Below, piece after piece: positions 36,274 to 50,125 of a DNA stretch of 64,000 nucleotides (within the stretch, counting starts at the first letter, position 1; each line of letters opens with the position of its first letter). The DNA comes from Candidatus Bathyarchaeia archaeon (GTDB taxonomy: Archaea > Thermoproteota > Bathyarchaeia > Hecatellales > Hecatellaceae): assembly GCA_038883335.1 (NCBI GenBank), contig JAVZMI010000001.1, forward strand, positions 51,696 through 115,695. Direction: 5' to 3'. The notes under the pieces are model-generated. The model searched no databases, was not told where the DNA came from, and worked only from the letters and a program-made list of their open reading frames with translations. The position numbers were made by a program, and so were the translations under genes.

Positions 36274-36826
36274 CCTCCTGCAAAGGCCAAACTGCTGACT
36301 GCCACTTCTCTACCTCTCCACGAAGTCTCTCATAGAGGGCTCTCTCTTCAGGGGTTAGATTCTGGAATATTGTATCAGATTTACTGTTTAGAGAGGTAAA
36401 GAGAAGGATCTTATTGAGGCGACAGGTGAGAATGTCAATGGACAGCTGGACTGCTTTCTGTAACTCAGCCGCTTTTGCAGGGTTCGCGTAACTTTCTTCC
36501 CTGAGAACTTTAATGAACCTCTTTAAACGTGGGTAGAAATTTTCTGGGAGACCGGAGAGGCGTCGACTGGTTTGCATTGTCTCTTTTAAGTGAATCTTGT
36601 GGAGCTCTGCTAGGTTTATGGGTTCTCTTTCGGGCTGCAACCGTGCCAGACCTAACTTTATGAGCGCCTCAGCTACCCACATCCTAACCTTGAACTGTGT
36701 GTTCTCCACATAAGGGCCGATCTCCTCTCCGGCTACAGTAAGTTTTGGGATTTTCTTCGAAGCTATTAACGCTGCAGGACTGTGTTCATACCGTATATTA
36801 TACACGGTGAAGGGATGCGAAGACAT
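36266..36826 (-). CDS. Putative GINS subunit (Gins23-like), co-operonic with mcm
   Basis: 186 aa. Its stop overlaps the mcm start by 8 nt, as in crenarchaeal gins23-mcm operons. Sequence similarity to GINS was not verified. Confidence 0.35.
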   Translation of the reverse strand: MSSHPFTVYNIRYEHSPAALIASKKIPKLTVAGEEIGPYVENTQFKVRMWVAEALIKLGLARLQPEREPINLAELHKIHLKETMQTSRRLSGLPENFYPRLKRFIKVLREESYANPAKAAELQKAVQLSIDILTCRLNKILLFTSLNSKSDTIFQNLTPEERALYERLRGEVEKWQSAVWPLQEDE

Positions 36827-37319
36827 AGTTTAAACCGATTTGAGAGAGAAGCTTCTATATAATAGTCTTTTCTGGACAGACATTTTTACTGAATGCTACT
36901 GGTTCTTCTATCTTGGACTTTAAGCCGCTCAAAACATCTGACTTAAATAAACTGAGCCCTTTTCGTCGACGTGTTCCAAACTATTTTGAGGTTTACTCTT
37001 CTCCAAGAGGTCAGCGGAGGTACTTCTCCTCATCGGCCCTCTGTAGAGGGTCTAGGAGCAGGTCAGTCCACATCATCTAGAATGGTAAGATCTGGGTTAA
37101 TATTTAAACTTTTGACACATACAACCGCGGTAACTTGCACAGTGAACCGCCGGTAAAGCTTTCAAGGAAAGCTATTTTTACAGGTTTAACCGGCTGATAG
37201 CTAGCTCAATTGCCTCAAAAAGGGCACAAGAATGGAGGCTTCTACATGTCCTTTACTGGTTATGGAGCACCACTGAGATGTTGTTAATTCAAACCAGTAG
37301 TGCCATGTTAGCGGAGCGG

Positions 37320-38424: not shown

Positions 38425-38781
38425 TCACCGTACGAGCCATGTTTCCTCTTCTTTCAAGCTAGCCGAGTCTGAAAATAGACGACGGAAGACGGCTACGTAT
38501 CCACGAAACTCAAGTTTGATCATCTCCTTTCCTCTCTGAGTTAGTCCATAGAGCTTTTTCTCAGCATTAGGAAGACTTTCGATTAGTCCATCTCTCCTCA
38601 ACGCTTCAATCGACGGGTAGACTGTGCCTGGGCTTAGTAGAACCATGAAGTGATTATGAATATAGCTGAGCACATCGTAACCGCACTTCGGGGAATCCTC
38701 TAGGGCTATAAGTATCAATAGATCTTTGAGGTTTTTCACACACCGTGTATAAACGTCCCTTGGAACTGGAATAACGGCCAC
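38425..38781 (-). CDS. PadR-family transcriptional regulator
   Basis: 118 aa with the wHTH ILIALEDSPKCGYDVLSYIHNHF...LSPGTVYPSIEALRRDGLIES (PadR signature). Confidence 0.7.
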   Translation of the reverse strand: MAVIPVPRDVYTRCVKNLKDLLILIALEDSPKCGYDVLSYIHNHFMVLLSPGTVYPSIEALRRDGLIESLPNAEKKLYGLTQRGKEMIKLEFRGYVAVFRRLFSDSASLKEEETWLVR

Positions 38782-38790
38782 CCACCCCCA

Positions 38791-39477
38791 TCAAGGAGTT
38801 GTATTTGAATTTATCCGTGGAGATAACTCCTCACGCTTGAAAGCAATGGTTGGATCTGGGGAAGATGCTGTAGAGTTTTTGAGGTTAGAGTTGCGTCCTT
38901 CAGAGTTTATGTGTGGGAAAGGTTGCTGGCAATATTTTGTCACGGGGCAGCCTTGGCATCGATTTTTCTGGTAGAAGAAGCACTCGAGGCAGCTATTCCC
39001 ACATGGGGTTCTTTCCAGCATTTCGGAGATTTTGAGTAGCGGCAGATGCGTTGGTTTCTCAAAGTTTCCAAAACTGACCTCTATATTCTTGAAAAGTGGA
39101 TTTAGGCGGAAATTCCTTTCAATCACCGCGCACAATGTATTGTAATCTTCAGCGGCTACCGTGGCTACTAAATTGTGAGCCCCAGTGCACGTGACTAAGC
39201 TCAGAACTCGTGGGCAGGCTTCTAGTACTTCGATGTATTGAGTGAGCCCATTTAAGTCGCTGCATGAGCAACTTACAACAGCTATTGATAGTGCAAGCCT
39301 CTCAATGTGAACTAGAGGGGTGAATTTTATAATGTTCGACGAGACCAAATATGTGAGACGTCTCTTAACCTCTGTATCTGAGACTCCAACTAGGTAAGCT
39401 ATCGCCTTGAGTTTAAGTCTCCCGTTATCCGATAGTGCTCTAATGATCTTTGTGTCCGTTTCAGTCAATACCCTCAT
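38791..39477 (-). CDS. Lrp/AsnC-family regulator (HTH plus RAM domain) with a C-terminal Cys-rich, TRASH-like putative metal-binding extension
   Basis: 228 aa. Residues 1-60 form the HTH (TKIIRALSDNGRLKLKAIAYLVGVSDTEVKRRL). Residues 60-140 form the RAM domain. Then comes CGNSCLECFFYQKNRCQGCPVTKYC, six Cys in about 26 aa. Confidence 0.65.
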   Translation of the reverse strand: MRVLTETDTKIIRALSDNGRLKLKAIAYLVGVSDTEVKRRLTYLVSSNIIKFTPLVHIERLALSIAVVSCSCSDLNGLTQYIEVLEACPRVLSLVTCTGAHNLVATVAAEDYNTLCAVIERNFRLNPLFKNIEVSFGNFEKPTHLPLLKISEMLERTPCGNSCLECFFYQKNRCQGCPVTKYCQQPFPHINSEGRNSNLKNSTASSPDPTIAFKREELSPRINSNTTP

Positions 39478-39491
39478 CTTCTCAACCCTTT

Positions 39492-40316
39492 TTAGACTAT
39501 AACCTCAATCGGCTGTTGACTCACCACACCACACCCACCAGTGTAATCTACTGCAGTTTCCATTACAGGCTTGTGAGGCTGGGATAAATTCATAGCTATA
39601 CAGTCTGTCTTCTCCACTATCAACTCAATAGCCCTTCTCCAAAGTGGAGATTCAGCCAAGCATGGGAGGTAAACCTCCAGAGTATACTTGGCTCCCTTCG
39701 CGGTCAGCTTGAAATACCTAGAACTTGACCTCTCCTCTACTATAAAGCTCTCAAAGACTAGATCGGAGATAATCTCACACAACCTATCATAATTAAGCCA
39801 AGTTCCTGGATGAGAACTAGCAACCAAACCTTCTGGAGACCGAATGGCCCTTTCAGCCTCCAAATATTTGAGACAGTTATAGATCCAAGCTGCGGATGGC
39901 TTCGACAAACATGTTGGAATTTTAGACGCTCTCTCCCGTCTTAGTATCAGGTAAAGAATGAGCCCCCTTAAGGCCTCTTGTATACCTGCAGGCTGGTTCA
40001 CTAAAGATTTTAAGCGCTGAACTTCTTCGCTGAGAGAATAATGACTCCCCCAGGTTCCGAAGGCCTTATCCCCATAATCCTTGATCCTAGATAGCCCTAA
40101 ACCCGGCTCACTAACTGATCCGTCATCACACAGCTCAGCCACTTGCACATAATCAAGCGACGGTCTGCCGTCAAGGCGGCTCTGTGCCATCGTTAAGGAC
40201 GCTCTCTCTGCAAGGAAGTGGAGCCCTACAAGATAGCTTGAGTAATTTAATGAGTAATTTATCATACGCAACAGACTTGACTGTCTACTTACGACTGGTT
40301 CAACGATGAACCACAC
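39492..40316 (-). CDS. Hypothetical protein
   Basis: 274 aa with no recognised motif. It sits in the same operon as the Lrp-like and PadR regulators. Confidence 0.3.
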   Translation of the reverse strand: MWFIVEPVVSRQSSLLRMINYSLNYSSYLVGLHFLAERASLTMAQSRLDGRPSLDYVQVAELCDDGSVSEPGLGLSRIKDYGDKAFGTWGSHYSLSEEVQRLKSLVNQPAGIQEALRGLILYLILRRERASKIPTCLSKPSAAWIYNCLKYLEAERAIRSPEGLVASSHPGTWLNYDRLCEIISDLVFESFIVEERSSSRYFKLTAKGAKYTLEVYLPCLAESPLWRRAIELIVEKTDCIAMNLSQPHKPVMETAVDYTGGCGVVSQQPIEVIV

Positions 40317-40321
40317 ATCGG

Positions 40322-40624
40322 TCAGTCTGTCTCTGTGAGTGGGGTTTTTTCACCTTGGAAGTGGGCTTCTCTAGAGTTTAAGTATATAAGCTTCAGCCTT
40401 GGGAAGACTTGTTTTAGACCAGCTGTCTCAAAATAACTGTCTCTGGATCCTAAGAGGGCGGTGTACTCTTTTTTAGGATCCAACCCAAGGTTATCAATTA
40501 TATCGTATCCTAATTCTTTCCCAAGTTCCATGGAGGCGAAAGCAACTTTCGTCGGGGATATACTTCGCCTTATGATTGTTATACATTTCCTAGCTACAGG
40601 CGACTTCGAGATGTAAATTTTCAT
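40322..40624 (-). CDS. Hypothetical protein
   Basis: 100 aa. It is the first gene of the minus-strand operon 40624->38425. Confidence 0.25.
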   Translation of the reverse strand: MKIYISKSPVARKCITIIRRSISPTKVAFASMELGKELGYDIIDNLGLDPKKEYTALLGSRDSYFETAGLKQVFPRLKLIYLNSREAHFQGEKTPLTETD

Positions 40625-40843
40625 TCAACATTCCTCTACGCAGCATTTTCTTTCCATTATTTTACGAGTATAGATCTATTATGAGGTTATTTATAAATTT
40701 TGTGCACGTATAACTAAAATAATTGAAAAATAATCTATTAAAATCAATATTTTTTTAAAATAGATGTTTTTTGAGGTTATTTTTTATGTTTTTAACTCTC
40801 GGGCTTCAGAAAATATAAATTCTGAATTCCTGAATATTATTAT

Positions 40844-41158
40844 GTGGCAAGGTTGTCCGAAGAGAACCTTTGGAGTCAACTTAGACTCCTATCTCAAAAG
40901 GATGTAAGAAGAGTTTTATGCGAACTTTGCTTAGCCCCTGGTAGGAAAATGTCGCTTAAAGACCTAGCCTCTAGAACAGGGATCCCTTACACAACCGTAT
41001 ACCAGAAGATACAAGCAATGAGATCCGCAAGCCTGATTGATATGAAAGGAACGAAAAGAGAAGGCTTCACTGTCTATTTGAGAGACTTCGAACTACCGCC
41101 ACTTACCCCTGAAAGAATATGCGAGTTGGAGGGACGACCACTACCCAACATATTATGA
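40844..41158 (+). CDS. Winged-helix transcriptional regulator (ArsR/MarR-like)
   Basis: 104 aa with the HTH MSLKDLASRTGIPYTTVYQKIQAMRSASLI. Confidence 0.5.
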   Translation: MARLSEENLWSQLRLLSQKDVRRVLCELCLAPGRKMSLKDLASRTGIPYTTVYQKIQAMRSASLIDMKGTKREGFTVYLRDFELPPLTPERICELEGRPLPNIL

Positions 41159-41823
41159 GAGGGCAGATCTTGAAAGGAAACTATGTGGTCGTAGGGCTCA
41201 CCAATGAAAATGTTTGGAAAGAAGCTTTAAGATGCATTCGTAGAAATGGAGAATATATTACGGACCCTCAAAATCTAGAGAAAACCCAGGAGGTTCTAAA
41301 TCTAATCACCAGCATATTGAAGCCCTCTAACACGCTGCCTAGAGCATTCTCTAGAGACACGAAGATCAACGATCACCCCCACCTATTAGAAGGTCTAGTC
41401 AGACCTATCCCCGGCTTTAGCCCAGGAACACATCTCTGGGAATGGGCACTCCCTAGAGGACGACTGAATCAGATCGAAGATAACGTGACGAAAGTTCTCA
41501 GAAACAATCTACTCAGCCGCCGTGCAGTGGCATTAACTTTCCATCCAGGGATGGACTCTGAGCACATCCTCAACCCCCGCTATAGCTTCCCAGCTATACA
41601 GATTGTTGACTTCAAGTATAGGGAAGGGAGTCTACATCTGACCGCCTACCTGAGGTCTTGTGACATATATTCTTGGTGGCCGATAAACGTCGTCCAAGCC
41701 TACAGACTCCTCAAGAAAGTAGGAGAGAAACTTGACTTAAGTATAGGAACGCTCACATTGATGATCAGTAGCGCCCATGTCAAAGCAAGAAACCTAAAAA
41801 GGATTGAAACAATACTAGTTTAA
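41155..41823 (+). CDS. Thymidylate synthase (ThyA-fold) homolog lacking the catalytic cysteine
   Basis: 222 aa. It aligns by eye to E. coli ThyA. RRAVALTFHPG matches RRIIVSAWN, AYLRSCDIYSWWPINVVQAYRLL matches [22 protein letters not shown], and GTLTLMISSAHV matches GDFVWTGGDTHLY. The nucleophile motif P-C-H is replaced by P-R-Y. The start was taken at the internal ATG 41155; the ORF begins at 41119. Confidence 0.6.
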   Translation: MRGQILKGNYVVVGLTNENVWKEALRCIRRNGEYITDPQNLEKTQEVLNLITSILKPSNTLPRAFSRDTKINDHPHLLEGLVRPIPGFSPGTHLWEWALPRGRLNQIEDNVTKVLRNNLLSRRAVALTFHPGMDSEHILNPRYSFPAIQIVDFKYREGSLHLTAYLRSCDIYSWWPINVVQAYRLLKKVGEKLDLSIGTLTLMISSAHVKARNLKRIETILV

Positions 41824-43348: not shown

Positions 43349-45709
43349 TTGTTGCCCACGTCTCCTCAACGCTCTGAGAGAAACCCCCCCATCAACCAAA
43401 AAGGTGAAACGGAGATGAGCGAAGCGGCTAACCAAACTTGTAAAACATGCGGAGCGATCATGGAGCGGGGGAAGTGCCCCAAATGCACACCTTTTGAAGA
43501 GTTTATTAACCTTCCACTGGCGTCATGTGTGAATTGCGGTCACTATTTAGGCTTAGAGTGCCCCAGAGCTTCAATACACCAAGAGAATAGGCGAACCCGC
43601 ACCTTCACTGCAGACGACTATAAAATCTGTGAAAAGTGGACGTTAGCCATCAGAACTGCGGATGGCACAGTTTATAGACCTCTGGTGAACAAGGGAATCT
43701 CCGCTCATCCAGCCTCTCTCTTCCATAGCGGAGAAAACGGCATCATAGTTGGTGAGCTGACCTTCGCCCGTTCAGAAGTGGAAAAAACAAAGAAGGAAGA
43801 CCCAATAAAGACTAGAGAGATAACCGTTTATCTTTTTTGGTGCCACCACCACAACCACGAGCTCCAACTTTACTTTAAATCGCTCAGTGCAGTGGACGCC
43901 ATTCCCTATGGTGATAAAGAGATCTACCTCGAGAAGGATAACCTTGTGAAAGACCCAATTCAGACGTTGATACCGTTAGAGACTGTGGAGCGGGTTGCGG
44001 CTAGCCCTGAAGAGGCAAACAAAGAAGCGGAGTTCCCCGCAATTTTCAGACAGGTAAAGACAGAGCTCAGACGTTTTCTCAACCTAGAGTGGGATCCACG
44101 GCTTTACGATTTATTGGCATGTTACATTATCGCAACATACTTCTTCGACGCATTCCAAACGTTCCCATGGCTTTATTTCTATGGCTTTCAGGGATGCGGA
44201 AAAACAAGAGGAGCCCTAACGGTCACATATATGGCTAGACACGGTCACATGGTCACAAAACCGAGTGACGCTTCCATCTTCCGACTATGCCACGCCATCA
44301 AGCCCACCTTATGTGTGGACGAGGGACTGTTAGGACGGTCAGCTTGGAGTTTCGCCCGATCCACATTCAAGAAAGGCGTCAAGGTTCCACGAGTCGAGAA
44401 GACCCCACGAGAAGAGTTCGTTATTTCGCTCTTCGACTTGTACATGCCACTAGTCTTCGCTTCAACTAAGAAGCCCACTGAAGCGGGGGGGTTGAATGCG
44501 GATGAGGCACGTGCAATATTCATCCACATGGAACGAGCTCGAGACCCTATAGGTCGGGATCCCACGCCAGAAGACTTTGCCGCTCTAAGAGATCGGCTCT
44601 ACATGTTGCGGCTCTTCAAGGCTAAATGTGTCGTCGAGACGTCTAAGAACATTAATGTTCCGTTTCTGGGACATGAACGAGAAATATGGACGCCCATCTT
44701 CACGATTGCCAACTTAGTTGGGAAGGACGTTCTCTCTTCTCTCTATAAACTAGCAAACGACCTGTACGCTTCAAAGTTTGTAGAGTTAAATGTGAAAGAG
44801 AAGACAATACTTGACGCCATAGCCCTCCTATTCAAAGAAACGAACGAAAAAATTGTGTGTTTCACACCTTCTTCTCTTCAAGCGTACATCAAAACTGTGC
44901 TTATAGAAAGCGGAGAGTACGACGAACTCCACTTTCCAAAGATATGGAACGTGTATCTCATAGGCAGGCTCCTTTCAAGGATGAAACTCACACCCAAACG
45001 GGACACGGCTCGAAAATACTATATCACCCAGCCTCAGTTCGCCAAGCTTGAAAAACAATTTGGTATAGAGCTCGACGTTTTCGACGTTTTCGACGTTAAT
45101 GTGGAAGAACCATCTACCCCCACTTCAGACCCCAATACCCTATCCCTAAAATTAACGTCGAATTCGTCGAATTCGTCGAACGATAAAAAAGAAAGCTTAG
45201 ACAACGCCTCTTTAAACGAAAAAACCTTAGAAAAAGGCGAATTTAGAGATAGTGTTAAAAATAAAGCTTCTCAACCTGAAATAGAAGCTAAAAAAGACGA
45301 ACAGACCGCTCTAGAGAGTGAAAGTTTCGACGTTTTCGACGTTTTCGACGTTAATGTGGAAGAACCCCCTACCCCCACTTCAGACCCCAATACCCTATCC
45401 CTAAAATTAACGTCGAATTCGTCGAATTCGTCGAACGACGAGAGGGGGAACGGCTCTCATGGTGGCTTTAATGATGTTTCTTGCGGCACTTCTAACAGTG
45501 GTTCTGTTGGCGTTTCTAGTGAGGTTTCTAGTTGCACTGTAGAGAAGCACCACTGTCTCACAACGGAGGGTAGTGAACCTCAACCGATGGTCAGTGGAGT
45601 ACCAGGTCTCCCACCAAGGTTCAAATGTGAGATCTGTGGACGGAAGTTCCGTTTCCCCTACGATGTGCTCTCACATAAGCAAACCGACCACGGTTTAAAG
45701 GTGGTCTAA
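43349..45709 (+). CDS. Element-encoded Zn-finger/P-loop NTPase (putative replication helicase or initiator) with a C-terminal tandem-repeat region and a C2H2 zinc finger
   Basis: 786 aa. The N-terminal Zn-ribbons are CKTCG...CPKC and CVNCGH...C. Walker A is GFQGCGKT and Walker B is LCVDEG. It is followed by two copies of FDVFDVFDVNVEEP(S/P)TPTSDPNTLSLKLTSNSSNSSND and a terminal C2H2 finger FKCEICGRKFRFPYDVLSHKQTDH. Confidence 0.55.
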   Translation: MLPTSPQRSERNPPINQKGETEMSEAANQTCKTCGAIMERGKCPKCTPFEEFINLPLASCVNCGHYLGLECPRASIHQENRRTRTFTADDYKICEKWTLAIRTADGTVYRPLVNKGISAHPASLFHSGENGIIVGELTFARSEVEKTKKEDPIKTREITVYLFWCHHHNHELQLYFKSLSAVDAIPYGDKEIYLEKDNLVKDPIQTLIPLETVERVAASPEEANKEAEFPAIFRQVKTELRRFLNLEWDPRLYDLLACYIIATYFFDAFQTFPWLYFYGFQGCGKTRGALTVTYMARHGHMVTKPSDASIFRLCHAIKPTLCVDEGLLGRSAWSFARSTFKKGVKVPRVEKTPREEFVISLFDLYMPLVFASTKKPTEAGGLNADEARAIFIHMERARDPIGRDPTPEDFAALRDRLYMLRLFKAKCVVETSKNINVPFLGHEREIWTPIFTIANLVGKDVLSSLYKLANDLYASKFVELNVKEKTILDAIALLFKETNEKIVCFTPSSLQAYIKTVLIESGEYDELHFPKIWNVYLIGRLLSRMKLTPKRDTARKYYITQPQFAKLEKQFGIELDVFDVFDVNVEEPSTPTSDPNTLSLKLTSNSSNSSNDKKESLDNASLNEKTLEKGEFRDSVKNKASQPEIEAKKDEQTALESESFDVFDVFDVNVEEPPTPTSDPNTLSLKLTSNSSNSSNDERGNGSHGGFNDVSCGTSNSGSVGVSSEVSSCTVEKHHCLTTEGSEPQPMVSGVPGLPPRFKCEICGRKFRFPYDVLSHKQTDHGLKVV
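45072..45438. repeat. Two 112-nt near-identical direct repeats (45072-45183 and 45327-45438, period 255 nt) inside the 786-aa ORF, with embedded micro-repeats (tcgacgtttt x2.5; tcgaattcg x2)
   Basis: The copies were aligned directly. They differ only in ccatct versus ccccct. They encode the duplicated low-complexity protein segment. Confidence 0.8.
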
Positions 45710-46657
45710 ATGCGGAGAGAAGACTTCTGGTTTGAGTGGTTCGGCTTGTTCGGCAGAGAGGTTGGTAACCCGTTTCGGTTCTTCGTAGACAACCCTATAG
45801 ATTTCGTCAAGTTTGTTGAGAAATGTGAAGCGGCGAAGTCTCCAGTCTTCATGTCAGTGAACCATTATCGGGATCGAGACACGGTTTACGCTCTCGACAA
45901 GCTTTTCTTCGATTTTGACAACGCAACAGAGCCTGAGAAAGCCATCTATGAGGCTCTCCAGTTCGCAGAGATTTTAAAACGGTTCTACCATGCGGAGCCC
46001 TTAATCGTTCGCTCAGGTCTCAAAGGTGCGGGTGTCTACGTTTTCTTTCCACAAGCCATAACTGGAGCCCCCGAAGACTTAGCAGAGGTCTATCGCAAAG
46101 TCGCCAGCCTCATCTTGAAGGGTCTCCAGTTCTCCACGTTAGACCATCAGGTTCTGGGGGACGTTAAACGGCTAAGTCGGGTTCCTTATACACGCCACGA
46201 GAAGAGCGGTCAAATGTGCATCCCCATAAACGAGAAAGGAGTGGAAGTCAACCTGAGCGGGGAAGACTTGGCGAAAATCAGAGAGAGAAGCCCCCTACCC
46301 GCTCACATGCTCAAACTTGCATGGCACCACATCTTCTTGGAGCGGAAGGTGAGAGCGGGGGAAGGAAACCGCAACCAAGCCCCCCCTTTCAATAAGATTA
46401 GAACACCAGTTCAAGACCTCATATTGTTAGCTAAGGCTGGAGCCCACCTTTCCCACCACGGATACCTAGCCATACTCTTCGAACTCATCAACAACGGTTA
46501 CACAGACGACCAGATCCTTTCCCTCTTTAGAACGCTCTTCAAATCCAAGTTTAACGAGAAAGAGACCCGCTACTTCATCACGCATGCCCGAAAGAAACGC
46601 TACCTACCCTTCAGCATCTCACGGGTAAAACATGAACTAAATCTACTCTCACCTTAG
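45710..46657 (+). CDS. Archaeo-eukaryotic primase (AEP/prim-pol) superfamily protein
   Basis: 315 aa. It has the catalytic acidic motif LFFDFDN (hhhDhD), SGLKGAGVYVFF (SGxRG-like motif II) and LSRVPYTRHEKSG (motif III). Its start abuts the stop of the upstream NTPase gene. Confidence 0.6.
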   Translation: MRREDFWFEWFGLFGREVGNPFRFFVDNPIDFVKFVEKCEAAKSPVFMSVNHYRDRDTVYALDKLFFDFDNATEPEKAIYEALQFAEILKRFYHAEPLIVRSGLKGAGVYVFFPQAITGAPEDLAEVYRKVASLILKGLQFSTLDHQVLGDVKRLSRVPYTRHEKSGQMCIPINEKGVEVNLSGEDLAKIRERSPLPAHMLKLAWHHIFLERKVRAGEGNRNQAPPFNKIRTPVQDLILLAKAGAHLSHHGYLAILFELINNGYTDDQILSLFRTLFKSKFNEKETRYFITHARKKRYLPFSISRVKHELNLLSP

Positions 46658-47244: not shown

Positions 47245-47385
47245 TGGGTCTCAGTCTTCCCATACAGAGTCGGCTTTTTAGTGTAGATTGAGAACCAATG
47301 TTCCCCTTCTACACATGTGATCCTGTTATTGTTAGTTAAGGTAAACTGGTTATTTTAGAGGCTTCTATTAGTTAAAATAAACTGG

Positions 47386-48633
47386 TTAAGTTAGAAGCTT
47401 CCTTATCTCCGCAACCTCTTCCAACGCCCTGTTAATCCTTCCAGTGAGCTCCGTGTTCTCCAACTCCAACCTTGCCATCCTGCTCTTAAGCTCCAAGTTT
47501 TCTGCAGAGAGGTTCTCTATCACCTTCTGGAGGCTTTGGATGCGTTCATCCACCTTGGCGTCAACCTTCCTCTCAATCTCCGACGGGTCGACTGGAGGGG
47601 GGGTTATGCTCAGTAAGCGTTCCCGTTCGAGATACATCTTCCTGAGGCTCTCAAACTGGAGCCCTTTATACGCTTCCGCCATCTCTCCGATTGCATGCCC
47701 TAACCAGAAGTCAACTATGGTGTCTGGTACGCCTGAGTTAATCATTATGCTACCGAAGCTTTCACGCAAGGCATGGGGACTTAACGGGTTGATGTCTCTA
47801 CCGTTATTATAGGGGTCTATGAAGCCCGCCTTTAATGCCACCTCTCTCAACATGTTCTGGACTAGGTGTGGTTGAAGTGGAGCCCCATGTGGTCGTTCCC
47901 TTTGGAATAGTGGCGAACCGTCTTGAAGCTTCACACCTCTGGCTTCAAGGTCTCGGAGGTAGACTTTGACTGCTTCTATTGCGTCACGCCCAAGGAATGT
48001 GAAATATTCCACTCCAGTTTTCGGTCGGTAGAGGTCTAGCTTGAGGGGGATCTCTCCAGACTCGAGACCTCTCCGTATGTCTCCATATTTGAGACTGCAC
48101 AGTGTCGAGACATCCATCCCGCTTTGAAACATGGTGAGAATGACGGCTTTGTCACGGGGGTTCCTTGCATGATCCACCAACAACTTGACCTGACTAGAGC
48201 TCAACCTCATCCTTCGGTTGGTTACCTTCGGTTTGGGAAGCCTGTAGCGGCCCTTAAGGCGCACTTCAACGTCGAAAGTCGAGTAGAAGCTTCTTATGGC
48301 GGTTATGTAGAGGTTTGCGGCTTTATCGCTCAAACCCTTCTTGACTTCTGTATGTTCGCATCTTCCACGCCTTTTTATGGGGTAATCCTTTTTCAAATAT
48401 TGGTAGAACCCGACTATCCTGTTGAGGACTATGCCACGCCTTTGGCGTATGTCTCTGGTTTGGTCTTCTACGGCTTCGTCGATGAGTTGGCTTGCGGTTA
48501 GACCTGTGAAGGCTAGGTATGCTCTGATGGCGGTTTTGTAGCTTGCTTTGGTAGACGGTTTAGTTACGGGGTCAAGCCACCTTGATATGGCGGGGTCTTC
48601 TAAGTTTATCAGCTCAATTTGTGGAGACGACAT
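47386..48633 (-). CDS. int: Tyrosine recombinase/integrase (phage-integrase family), full length
   Basis: 415 aa with an N-terminal SAM-like domain. The C-terminal catalytic domain has R...HALRESFGS (H-x-x-R)...GHAIGEMAEAYKG with a terminal Tyr region. The gene is not split, which points to a pNOB8-type integrase. Confidence 0.8.
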   Translation of the reverse strand: MSSPQIELINLEDPAISRWLDPVTKPSTKASYKTAIRAYLAFTGLTASQLIDEAVEDQTRDIRQRRGIVLNRIVGFYQYLKKDYPIKRRGRCEHTEVKKGLSDKAANLYITAIRSFYSTFDVEVRLKGRYRLPKPKVTNRRMRLSSSQVKLLVDHARNPRDKAVILTMFQSGMDVSTLCSLKYGDIRRGLESGEIPLKLDLYRPKTGVEYFTFLGRDAIEAVKVYLRDLEARGVKLQDGSPLFQRERPHGAPLQPHLVQNMLREVALKAGFIDPYNNGRDINPLSPHALRESFGSIMINSGVPDTIVDFWLGHAIGEMAEAYKGLQFESLRKMYLERERLLSITPPPVDPSEIERKVDAKVDERIQSLQKVIENLSAENLELKSRMARLELENTELTGRINRALEEVAEIRKLLT

Positions 48634-48853: not shown

Positions 48854-49090
48854 ATGAGAGCCTACGTGTTAATCACCACCAAACCAGGGACCTCCGAAGA
48901 AGTCCTCAGACAGATCAAGACTACACGGGAGATCAAAGGTGTTATTCTGGCCGACTCGGTCTACGGTCGGTTTGATGCAGTAGTCGTGATCGAGGCGGAA
49001 AACCTAGAGACCATAACCGACATCATATACAAGGTGATAGAGAAATACCCGAACATAACTCACACCGAAACACTTTTGACCTTATTCTGA
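48854..49090 (+). CDS. Stand-alone RAM (Lrp/AsnC C-terminal ligand-binding) domain protein
   Basis: 78 aa. MRAYVLITTKPGTSEEV...GRFDAVVVIEAENLETITDIIYKVIEKYPNITHTETL fits the RAM beta-alpha-beta-beta-alpha-beta pattern. Confidence 0.55.
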   Translation: MRAYVLITTKPGTSEEVLRQIKTTREIKGVILADSVYGRFDAVVVIEAENLETITDIIYKVIEKYPNITHTETLLTLF

Positions 49091-49122: not shown

Positions 49123-49362
49123 TCAAGGAGGATGGAAGAGCGCGACAAGGGTCTCGGTATGGATGATGTTAGGGGCTTTCTCAATCATCTCGTAGATTAT
49201 CTTGGATAATTCTTCAAAGTCCGCCGCCTCGATCACAGCTACTGCATCAAACCGACCTAGGACTGAGTTAATCATCTTCACCCCCCTAATCCGTCTAGCC
49301 TTAACAAGCTCTTCCGAAGTTCCCGGCTTAGTTGTAACCAGCACGAAGGCACGAACCGGCAA
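49123..49362 (-). CDS. Stand-alone RAM domain protein, a paralog of 48854..49090 in convergent orientation
   Basis: 79 aa, MPVRAFVLVTTKPGTSEEL...GRFDAVAVIEAADFEELSKIIYEMIEKAPNIIHTETL. It is about 55% identical to its neighbour. Confidence 0.55.
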   Translation of the reverse strand: MPVRAFVLVTTKPGTSEELVKARRIRGVKMINSVLGRFDAVAVIEAADFEELSKIIYEMIEKAPNIIHTETLVALFHPP

Positions 49363-49982: not shown

Positions 49983-50125
49983 GCCCCGGTCAAGCCTCGG
50001 TTCCCTCGGTGAAGGGTGAGAGAGCGCAGCATGGTTGGCGCGTGGCCTTGGTAAAATATTAAAGCAAATTGATTGCACCTACAAAAAGGCTAAGGTCGCG
50101 GGTTCAAATCCCGCCCGGGGCTCCA
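49983..50125 (+). tRNA. tRNA-Thr(GGU) with two introns: a non-canonical one near positions 8/9 (about 32 nt, 49991-50022) and a canonical 37/38 intron (33 nt, 50054-50086)
   Basis: The deduced mature tRNA is GCCCCGG-UA-GCGC-AGCAUGGUUG-GCGC-G-UGGCC-UUGGUAA-GGCUA-AGGUC-GCGGG-UUCAAAU-CCCGC-CCGGGGC-U-CCA. The acceptor has 7 bp, and the D, anticodon (U33, GGU, A37) and T arms are canonical. The discriminator is U and the CCA is encoded. Confidence 0.75.

Follow-up and report, generated by a model that had tools for sequence, protein, structure and literature searches.

Among the systems described so far, the closest to the protein considered here are the full-length archaeal regulators of the Lrp/AsnC, or feast/famine, family, such as PH0140, FL11 (PH1519), LrpA and the halophilic Lrp 8q90, all of which have solved structures. 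Regulators that sense iron-sulfur (Fe-S) clusters include IscR and NsrR of the Rrf2 family, SufR, FNR and the WhiB-like proteins. A further arrangement is that of CopR, in which an Lrp-type helix-turn-helix (HTH) is followed by a C-terminal TRASH metal sensor (PMC7830388). In this study we analyse a cluster of regulator genes in a stretch of 64,000 nucleotides (nt) from a Candidatus Bathyarchaeia archaeon (contig JAVZMI010000001.1), referred to below as the window, in which an Lrp/AsnC-type protein of 228 amino acids (aa) carries an additional cysteine-rich module at its C-terminal side. We find that this protein belongs to a subfamily of Lrp regulators that is widespread and generically annotated, and that has neither a curated model nor a solved structure.

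For the window itself the outcome is mostly corrective. The cluster consists of three regulator genes, one of them frameshifted and probably decaying, and an earlier sequence-only reading that saw a TRASH-like sensor and a possible role in lysogeny control of a neighbouring mobile element is not supported. As a set of regulators the locus is otherwise ordinary, and its remaining interest lies in the Lrp subfamily with its six-cysteine signature.

Architecture of the Lrp-like protein

The sequence-only reading had correctly placed four minus-strand open reading frames (ORFs), a PadR match, an Lrp/AsnC protein with HTH and RAM domains and a cysteine-rich tail, with the PadR gene following the Lrp-like gene (Table 1). 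The N-terminal part of the Lrp-like protein matches the AsnC-type HTH model of Pfam (PF13404, residues 4-41, E 6.6e-10, 39.1 bits where the cutoff is 27), and a RAM domain (beta-alpha-beta-beta-alpha-beta) lies C-terminal to it. Residues 158-183, encoded within window positions 38923-39006, contain the motif PCGNSCLECFFYQKNRCQGCPVTKYC, in which the conserved cysteines are spaced C-x3-C-x2-C-x7-C-x2-C. The tail had been described as carrying six cysteines, of which five do prove invariant among the relatives, but the sixth, C183, is not conserved and is a Tyr in 196 of 220 of them, while another cysteine, C88 of the RAM domain, had been overlooked. An AlphaFold2 (AF2) model gives predicted local distance difference test (pLDDT) values of 89-95 in 10-residue blocks spanning residues 141-180. 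Because the solved Lrp structures cover just the first 136-156 residues, the module is an addition that has no solved counterpart; no solved Lrp with this extension is found among the Protein Data Bank (PDB) sequences, against which a profile of 47 tails gives chance-level matches only (E>=0.085). Relative to the archaeal full-length Lrp/AsnC proteins, whose solved structures are without these cysteines, the family of the window protein adds about 40 ordered residues, the five invariant tail cysteines and the cysteine in RAM, and it probably responds to something other than an amino acid.

A family defined by six cysteines

Homologues of the Lrp-like protein were searched for at E<=1e-3 in a library of 1.84 billion representative proteins, which returned 756 matches. 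Among the best 150, which we inspected, 102 carry the motif, mostly as Lrp proteins of ~185-195 aa that end in the module, and the exact x3-x2-x7-x2 spacing is kept in 79 of these 102, with the consensus aPCGxxCxxCxxYxxxxCxGCPATxxYRGxL. In all, the module ends more than 200 other archaeal Lrp proteins of ~190 aa. A degenerate DNA pattern written for the module was then scanned against metagenomes and found at least 120 loci; since 117 of the 120 listed encode an ORF that matches the Lrp profile as well as the module, the module is essentially always attached to an Lrp HTH and RAM core. Searches of other kinds were less productive, as a word-index homologue search with the Lrp-like protein recovered only the protein itself and a scan of GTDB recovered only one ordinary tail-less Lrp.

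In an alignment of 60 sequences C88, C159, C163, C166, C174, C177 and P178 are invariant. Of 220 tail-bearing sequences, 210 extend over the position of C88, and every one of these has a Cys at it; tail-less Lrp proteins mostly have I, L or F there. The five tail cysteines and the RAM cysteine are conserved as one set. The named members belong to metagenome-assembled genomes of Bathyarchaeia, Asgard groups, Korarchaeota, Thermoproteota/Thermoprotei and Methanomicrobia, all of which are anaerobic lineages, and in the public records they bear no label more specific than 'Lrp/AsnC family' or 'winged helix-turn-helix' regulator. Our literature searches found no paper on the subfamily and no characterised Lrp with this cysteine module. 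Several members are fused to other domains, which we assigned by eye: P0008 is a tandem double unit, P0043 and P0050 carry a KaiC-like part and P0048 a receiver (REC) domain. These fusions fit a transcription factor that integrates signals. By the same kind of inspection, P0084 has a possibly GAF-like N-terminus. One member, P0309 (WP_455277243.1), is filed in RefSeq under [Eubacterium] cellulosolvens, an anaerobic Firmicute, and reflects either horizontal transfer into that organism or a misassigned contig.

Genes beside the family members

The ORFs within 4 kilobases (kb) of 118 family genes were clustered, and the regulators themselves were grouped at 60% identity, which gave 54 groups, 34 of them with usable flanks. 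NifX-like proteins (Nitro_FeMo-Co) occur at 17 loci, P-loop ATPases of the MinD/Mrp type, several of them containing an inserted ferredoxin (Fer4) domain, at 16, stand-alone RAM proteins at 10, proteins of the metallo-beta-lactamase (MBL) fold, downstream and on the same strand, at 8, and NifU_N proteins at 6. Beside some members the Mrp/NBP35 ATPase gene is divergent. Thioredoxin_3 with an ArsP permease, ACR3, TauE, HdrA-like and CBS proteins also recur. At 13 loci (for example L043 1511-1885, L117 and L070) the neighbour is a cysteine-rich protein of 124 aa that has no Pfam match, is divergent from and adjacent to the regulator in every case and belongs with a single regulator subgroup; its sequence pattern is CCRCEG...CH.TCG.C...C.SCE.VGHC. 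These surroundings suggest many paralogous local regulators, the partners of which tend to have roles in Fe-S, metal(loid), sulfur or redox processes, with no uniform regulon. The recurrent stand-alone RAM neighbours hint at hetero-oligomers with full-length Lrp proteins.

The window's own Lrp-like gene is surrounded by the genes for PadR, a protein like uracil phosphoribosyltransferase (UPRTase) and proteins of the HTH_20, ThyA-like and PDCD5-like kinds, and the absence of an adjacent metal transporter, already pointed out by the sequence-only reading, is borne out by a Pfam reading of the neighbours. The ThyA-like gene lies 1.6 kb from the Lrp-like gene. In two of the related loci (L116 7346-8673 and L028 2095-3481) a ThyA-like gene stands directly upstream of the family gene in the same orientation, and in L116 this pair adjoins a glutaredoxin-like and NrdD-like pair. 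One subgroup may be linked to deoxynucleotide synthesis.

Proposed function of the module

With moderate confidence, we propose that the cysteine-module Lrp is a sensor that binds a metal cofactor. The tail would fold back against RAM and ligate the cofactor jointly with C88; an Fe-S cluster is favoured as this cofactor, with zinc as the alternative, and it would replace the amino-acid effector of ordinary feast/famine Lrp proteins. Its occupancy or redox state, reporting Fe-S, metal(loid) or thiol status, would then set DNA binding or the oligomer state. Judging from the usual mode of action of Lrp-type local regulators, the most probable targets in the window would be the promoter of the cluster itself and the divergent HTH/ThyA-like pair. 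An Fe-S cluster is favoured over zinc because six thiols rather than four are invariant, because the named members come from anaerobic lineages and because genes for Fe-S carriers are repeatedly encountered as divergent partners. A transcription factor that reports on a cluster would share its logic with IscR/NsrR, SufR, FNR and the WhiB-like proteins, and some of the subgroups adjoin Fe-S carrier genes, but none of these regulators has sequence or fold kinship with the six-cysteine Lrp proteins, in which the cluster is putative. A metal- or redox-linked role, which the sequence-only reading had suggested for the module, is judged plausible.

A broader reading can be put forward tentatively, although we consider it doubtful at this stage. 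The six-cysteine Lrp proteins might represent an unrecognised class of transcription factors in anaerobic archaea, including Asgard archaea and Bathyarchaeia, that sense an Fe-S cluster (or a redox cofactor), as a functional counterpart of bacterial IscR/SufR that uses the feast/famine scaffold, keeps its cluster between RAM and tail where an amino-acid effector would otherwise be and has different paralogues controlling genes for Fe-S carriers (Mrp/NBP35, NifX-like/ORP-type), arsenic/sulfite export and nucleotide metabolism (ThyA-like/NrdD). Our literature searches found no archaeal regulator on an Lrp scaffold that senses Fe-S clusters or metal cofactors. If this picture of the literature is right, Fe-S and metal-cofactor sensors are barely known in archaea. 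The subfamily is easily recognised and counts more than 200 sequences from four or more major uncultured lineages, which makes it a concrete and testable candidate.

Several observations weigh against a cofactor-sensing module. The two CxxC knuckles, 7 residues apart, would serve a purely structural Zn(Cys)4 site just as well. In hidden Markov model (HMM) comparisons the module resembles none of the characterised metal-binding domains, the sole echo being DUF3795 (PF12675), an uncharacterised Cys-rich family on which a literature search found nothing relevant. This echo is seen in 22 of the 47 tails, scores 11-17 bits where the cutoff is 22.6, and covers 16-18 residues; these open the module (aPCGxxCxxCxxY...) and match in register at profile positions 2-19 of 83, but the ~60 remaining positions are absent from the tails, and the window's own tail gives no match. 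The window protein is atypical in other ways as well: C183 replaces Tyr, the conserved (R/K)G after the module is QQ, a disordered tail of 45 residues is seen in no other member, and identity to any relative is at most 39%. Fe-S-type neighbours are found in just 6 of the 34 informative regulator subgroups, and only 2 subgroups account for the 11 loci in which an Mrp gene is divergent, so that the locus counts are not independent. Nothing Fe-S-related adjoins the window's gene.

Alternative explanations

The principal alternative is that the module is a purely structural zinc site that stabilises the fold or the oligomer of an otherwise ordinary Lrp responding to amino acids or metabolites. Two CxxC motifs spaced like C163-x2-C166 and C174-x2-C177 have a common zinc-knuckle geometry, a few tails weakly match zinc-ribbon or PHD-type models and the neighbourhoods of most subgroups are heterogeneous; we nevertheless regard this explanation as unlikely, given that the invariant cysteines number six, not four, with one inside the RAM effector domain, that all named members are from anaerobic lineages, and that Fe-S, arsenic, sulfite and redox genes recur beside them. 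Another explanation dispenses with a permanent cofactor and makes the module a thiol sensor, which could be a redox switch based on disulfides or a site for soft metal(loid)s, for example for As(III) on three thiolates as in ArsR-type proteins. By ArsR chemistry the C-x3-C-x2-C triad could bind As(III), ACR3 neighbours are found in 4 regulator subgroups and ArsP with thioredoxin-like proteins in 2, and among the immediate neighbours is what, from its sequence, we take to be an arsenate-reductase-like low-molecular-weight protein tyrosine phosphatase. However, most such neighbours do not adjoin the regulator gene, only a minority of subgroups have them, the window contains no ars genes and the architecture is unlike that of any known ArsR, which makes a thiol sensor improbable. 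That the module is a copper or heavy-metal sensor of the TRASH type is more improbable by far. The TRASH motif is reportedly C-x19-22-C-x3-C, as given by Ettema et al. in 2003, which the spacing of the module does not fit; the TRASH, YHS and Arc_trans_TRASH models give no match at E<=10 to residues 141-228, to the 35-aa core or to the 47 tails (that of the window and 46 others), zinc-ribbon models give no significant match to the window's tail, and neither copA nor copM is present among the window neighbours of the gene. The tail is not a TRASH domain, and the TRASH-like label of the sequence-only reading has to be withdrawn. An Lrp-type HTH with a C-terminal TRASH sensor does exist in CopR, and CopR/CopT share with the proposal made here the idea that a cysteine-containing sensor module, attached C-terminally to a DNA-binding protein of the Lrp type, alters oligomer or DNA behaviour, but in the window protein the module follows a complete RAM domain, whereas CopR consists of HTH and TRASH (PMC7830388).

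A different kind of alternative concerns the cluster as a whole, which could be cargo, or an immunity or lysogeny control, of the integrated element to its right. In its favour, the GC content at third codon positions (GC3) of the regulator block (0.42-0.46) is lower than that of the host replication genes (Hel308 0.54, MCM 0.53, GINS 0.49), and lower than that of all ORFs of the element core (0.475-0.59) except the one at 0.475. The region from 36.9 to 50.0 kb, between GINS and the tRNA-like gene, shows no synteny with the nearest relative, which does not offer an empty site, and P0152, a relative of the UPRTase-like gene described below, belongs to a variable region that also carries toxin-antitoxin pairs and a terminase. 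On the other hand, no attachment (att) repeats are found: the flanks share no direct repeat of at least 13 nt, and near-exact repeats, copies of the tRNA-like gene and a three-way alignment reveal nothing above chance. The pattern of the Lrp module matches 8 times in IMG/VR, never in an Lrp ORF, the phage collection gives no match to the family and the plasmids give tail-less Lrp proteins only. A conserved peptide of the UPRTase-like gene, also searched as a degenerate DNA pattern, is absent from IMG/VR, and PADLOC finds no matching defence system. Elsewhere, family members stand among ordinary cellular genes (aEF-2, NrdD, Mrp). The element's own genes offer little for comparison, as its 786-aa protein and its integrase have no useful relatives in IMG/VR. 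The family itself is cellular, as judged from these comparisons, and lysogeny control, as suggested by the sequence-only reading, is unsupported because the family is absent from the viral, phage and plasmid collections and the gene arrangement recurs in 0 of 118 loci. We consider element cargo or control very unlikely, although the cluster may be part of a larger genomic island.

An interrupted UPRTase-like gene

The four ORFs had been counted as four genes, two of them for uncharacterised proteins, but the cluster comprises three, because the two upstream ORFs, here 'ORF4' (100 aa) and 'ORF3' (274 aa), are the N- and C-terminal pieces of one. A homologue search with the 274-aa ORF finds two proteins of 366 aa, P0152 and P0153, both with the Pfam UPRTase domain; P0152 matches PF14681 at E 2.2e-9 (37.5 bits, cutoff 27) and the solved Upp structures at E 1e-5. 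When P0152 is compared with the window by tblastn, 'ORF3' aligns to its residues 108-355 at 41% identity with the frame shifted by -1, downstream of the segment matched by 'ORF4'. The shift is sited in a run of six A, where the downstream frame is open from 40349 already (KNPTHRDRLTDVWFIVEP...), and one A added to the run restores a single ORF of 377 aa. Because both ORFs align to consecutive segments of P0152 one frame apart and one added A rejoins them, 'ORF4' and 'ORF3' are, on sequence evidence, one UPRTase-like gene split by a homopolymer -1 frameshift. This frameshift may be a real mutation, an assembly error or a case of slippage.

The copy in the window appears to differ from its relatives in more than the frameshift. 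An intact loop for binding phosphoribosyl pyrophosphate (PRPP) is of the D-P-M-L-A-T-G-G-S type. In the window the loop reads VEPVVSRQSS, against IDPMVARGTT in P0152, and is degenerate, while the GLSRIKDYGDKAFGT motif is kept. This degenerate loop suggests that the copy is non-catalytic or decaying. Neither 'ORF4' alone nor the repaired protein gives a Pfam match, to any family in the first case and to UPRTase in the second, and the tie to the family is only through the 41-44% identity to P0152. 'ORF3' has no PDB relative by sequence, and NCBI annotates 259 aa of the C-terminal part as a hypothetical protein. A weak match to the DUF4364/Sso10a winged helix at residues 174-211 of 'ORF3' makes a winged helix in the C-terminal domain probable. 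The AF2 model of P0152, built on an alignment of four sequences, has a pLDDT of 41.5.

P0152 resembles Upp in its UPRTase domain, which is followed by the probable winged helix. PyrR and PurR are regulators with the phosphoribosyltransferase (PRT) fold, and P0152 is like them in coupling a PRT-like domain to a nucleic-acid-binding function, but the domain order and the C-terminal domain of the P0152-type protein are different; from all three, the window copy differs by its degenerate PRPP loop, its sub-threshold Pfam score and its frameshift. Neither an Lrp nor a PadR gene is present beside P0152. We also considered a defence role, such as that of retron-type proteins joining a phosphoribosyltransferase to a winged HTH, and discarded it, as PADLOC gives no match for P0152 or the repaired protein. 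In the rest of the locus PADLOC finds nothing for PadR, only KwaB at E 0.0074 for the Lrp-like protein, which we take as noise, and only a generic HTH for the ArsR-like protein.

PadR and the organisation of the locus

The PadR protein is well defined, matching PF03551 at E 5e-10 (39.7 bits, cutoff 27, residues 23-88) and the solved short PadR proteins 4esb and 5dym at E 4e-4, which it resembles in Pfam score and in its 118-aa length, with no notable difference. The locus is made up of three co-oriented transcription-factor genes, a broken one for a UPRTase-like protein with winged helix, one for the Lrp/AsnC protein with its cysteine module and one for a short PadR. In order, the gaps between the four ORFs are 5, 14 and 9 nt, the first of which is the frameshift inside the split gene. 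The genes are likely co-transcribed from the intergenic region at 40625-40843, because they share a strand, are separated by gaps of 9-14 nt and have a G-rich, Shine-Dalgarno-like stretch before the GTG start of PadR (GGGGGTGGGTG, read by eye). The shared strand and the short gaps agree with the operon proposed by the sequence-only reading, but the gene order is not conserved: the arrangement is missing from all 118 related loci, and in none of them does a homologue of PadR, 'ORF3' or 'ORF4' stand beside the family gene, the lone PadR match in phmmer being one at E 0.0047 (L109).

The same AT-rich intergenic region had been taken as the border of the mobile element. It is a divergent region common to the regulator cluster and the ArsR-like HTH/ThyA-like pair, and is presumed to hold the promoters of both. 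Within it lies an imperfect direct repeat of 47 nt (72% identical, 40655-40701 and 40745-40791) with the core ATAGAT.T.TT.TGAGGTTATTT, the copies of which could be duplicated promoter or operator elements. The ThyA-like protein scores 82.7 bits against the cutoff of 174.55 of the methanogen-type thymidylate synthase model and appears to be a diverged paralogue.

Table 1. Positions of the features of the window discussed in the text.
Feature	Position	Strand	Remarks
Four minus-strand ORFs	40624-40322, 40316-39492, 39477-38791, 38781-38425	-	100, 274, 228 and 118 aa
N-terminal fragment ('ORF4') of UPRTase-like/winged-helix gene	40322..40624	-	100 aa; 44% identity to P0152 residues 1-100
C-terminal part ('ORF3' plus 11 upstream codons open in same frame)	39492..40349	-	P0152 alignment
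A6 homopolymer (GGTGAAAAAACCCC on minus strand)	40345..40350	-	Site of -1 frameshift
Lrp/AsnC-family regulator, 228 aa	38791..39477	-	HTH 4-51, RAM ~55-146, cysteine module 158-185, disordered tail
Codon for C88	39214..39216	-	'CPR' motif of RAM domain; alignment of relatives
Cysteine module PCGNSCLECFFYQKNRCQGCPVTKYCQQ	38923..39006	-	Family-invariant C159, C163, C166, C174, C177; C183 peculiar to this member
PadR-family regulator, short type	38425..38781	-	118 aa, GTG start; Pfam and PDB matches
AT-rich divergent intergenic region	40625..40843		GC 0.40 in 40001-41000
Divergent pair: HTH_20/ArsR-like (40844-41158) and methanogen-type ThyA-like (41119-41823)	40844..41823	+	40-nt overlap
Primase-like genes	43349-46657		Right of regulator cluster
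Integrase	47386-48633	-	Right of regulator cluster
tRNA-like gene	50045-50122 (possibly from 49983)	+	Rfam RF00005, 30.3 bits, cutoff 29

Surroundings of the putative integrated element

By its MCM protein, the closest named relative of the source organism is Candidatus Hecatella, with 66% identity, and the closest relative of any kind (L134) is 81% identical. In the latter, the synteny of Hel308-MCM-GINS with the window ends exactly at the start of GINS (window 36826-36900), and none of its next nine genes is found anywhere in the 64-kb window. The only candidate integration target is the tRNA-like gene, which lies 1.35 kb from the integrase start; ARAGORN finds no tRNA in the whole 64 kb. 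A perfect 7-nt complement of the 3' acceptor strand of this gene, GCCCCGG, occurs at 49983-49989, and the gene may have a long intron.

Between the integrase and a JAB-domain gene there are two similar, convergent stand-alone RAM genes, at 48854-49090 on the plus strand (78 aa) and 49123-49362 on the minus strand (79 aa). The 3' end of the integrase gene contains a tandem repeat of 34 nt (85% identical, 47332-47401), the second copy of which overlaps the last codons and the stop. Within the ORF for the 786-aa protein of the element, a direct repeat of 112 nt (98% identical, 45072-45183 and 45327-45438, 255 nt apart) implies a very recent internal duplication.

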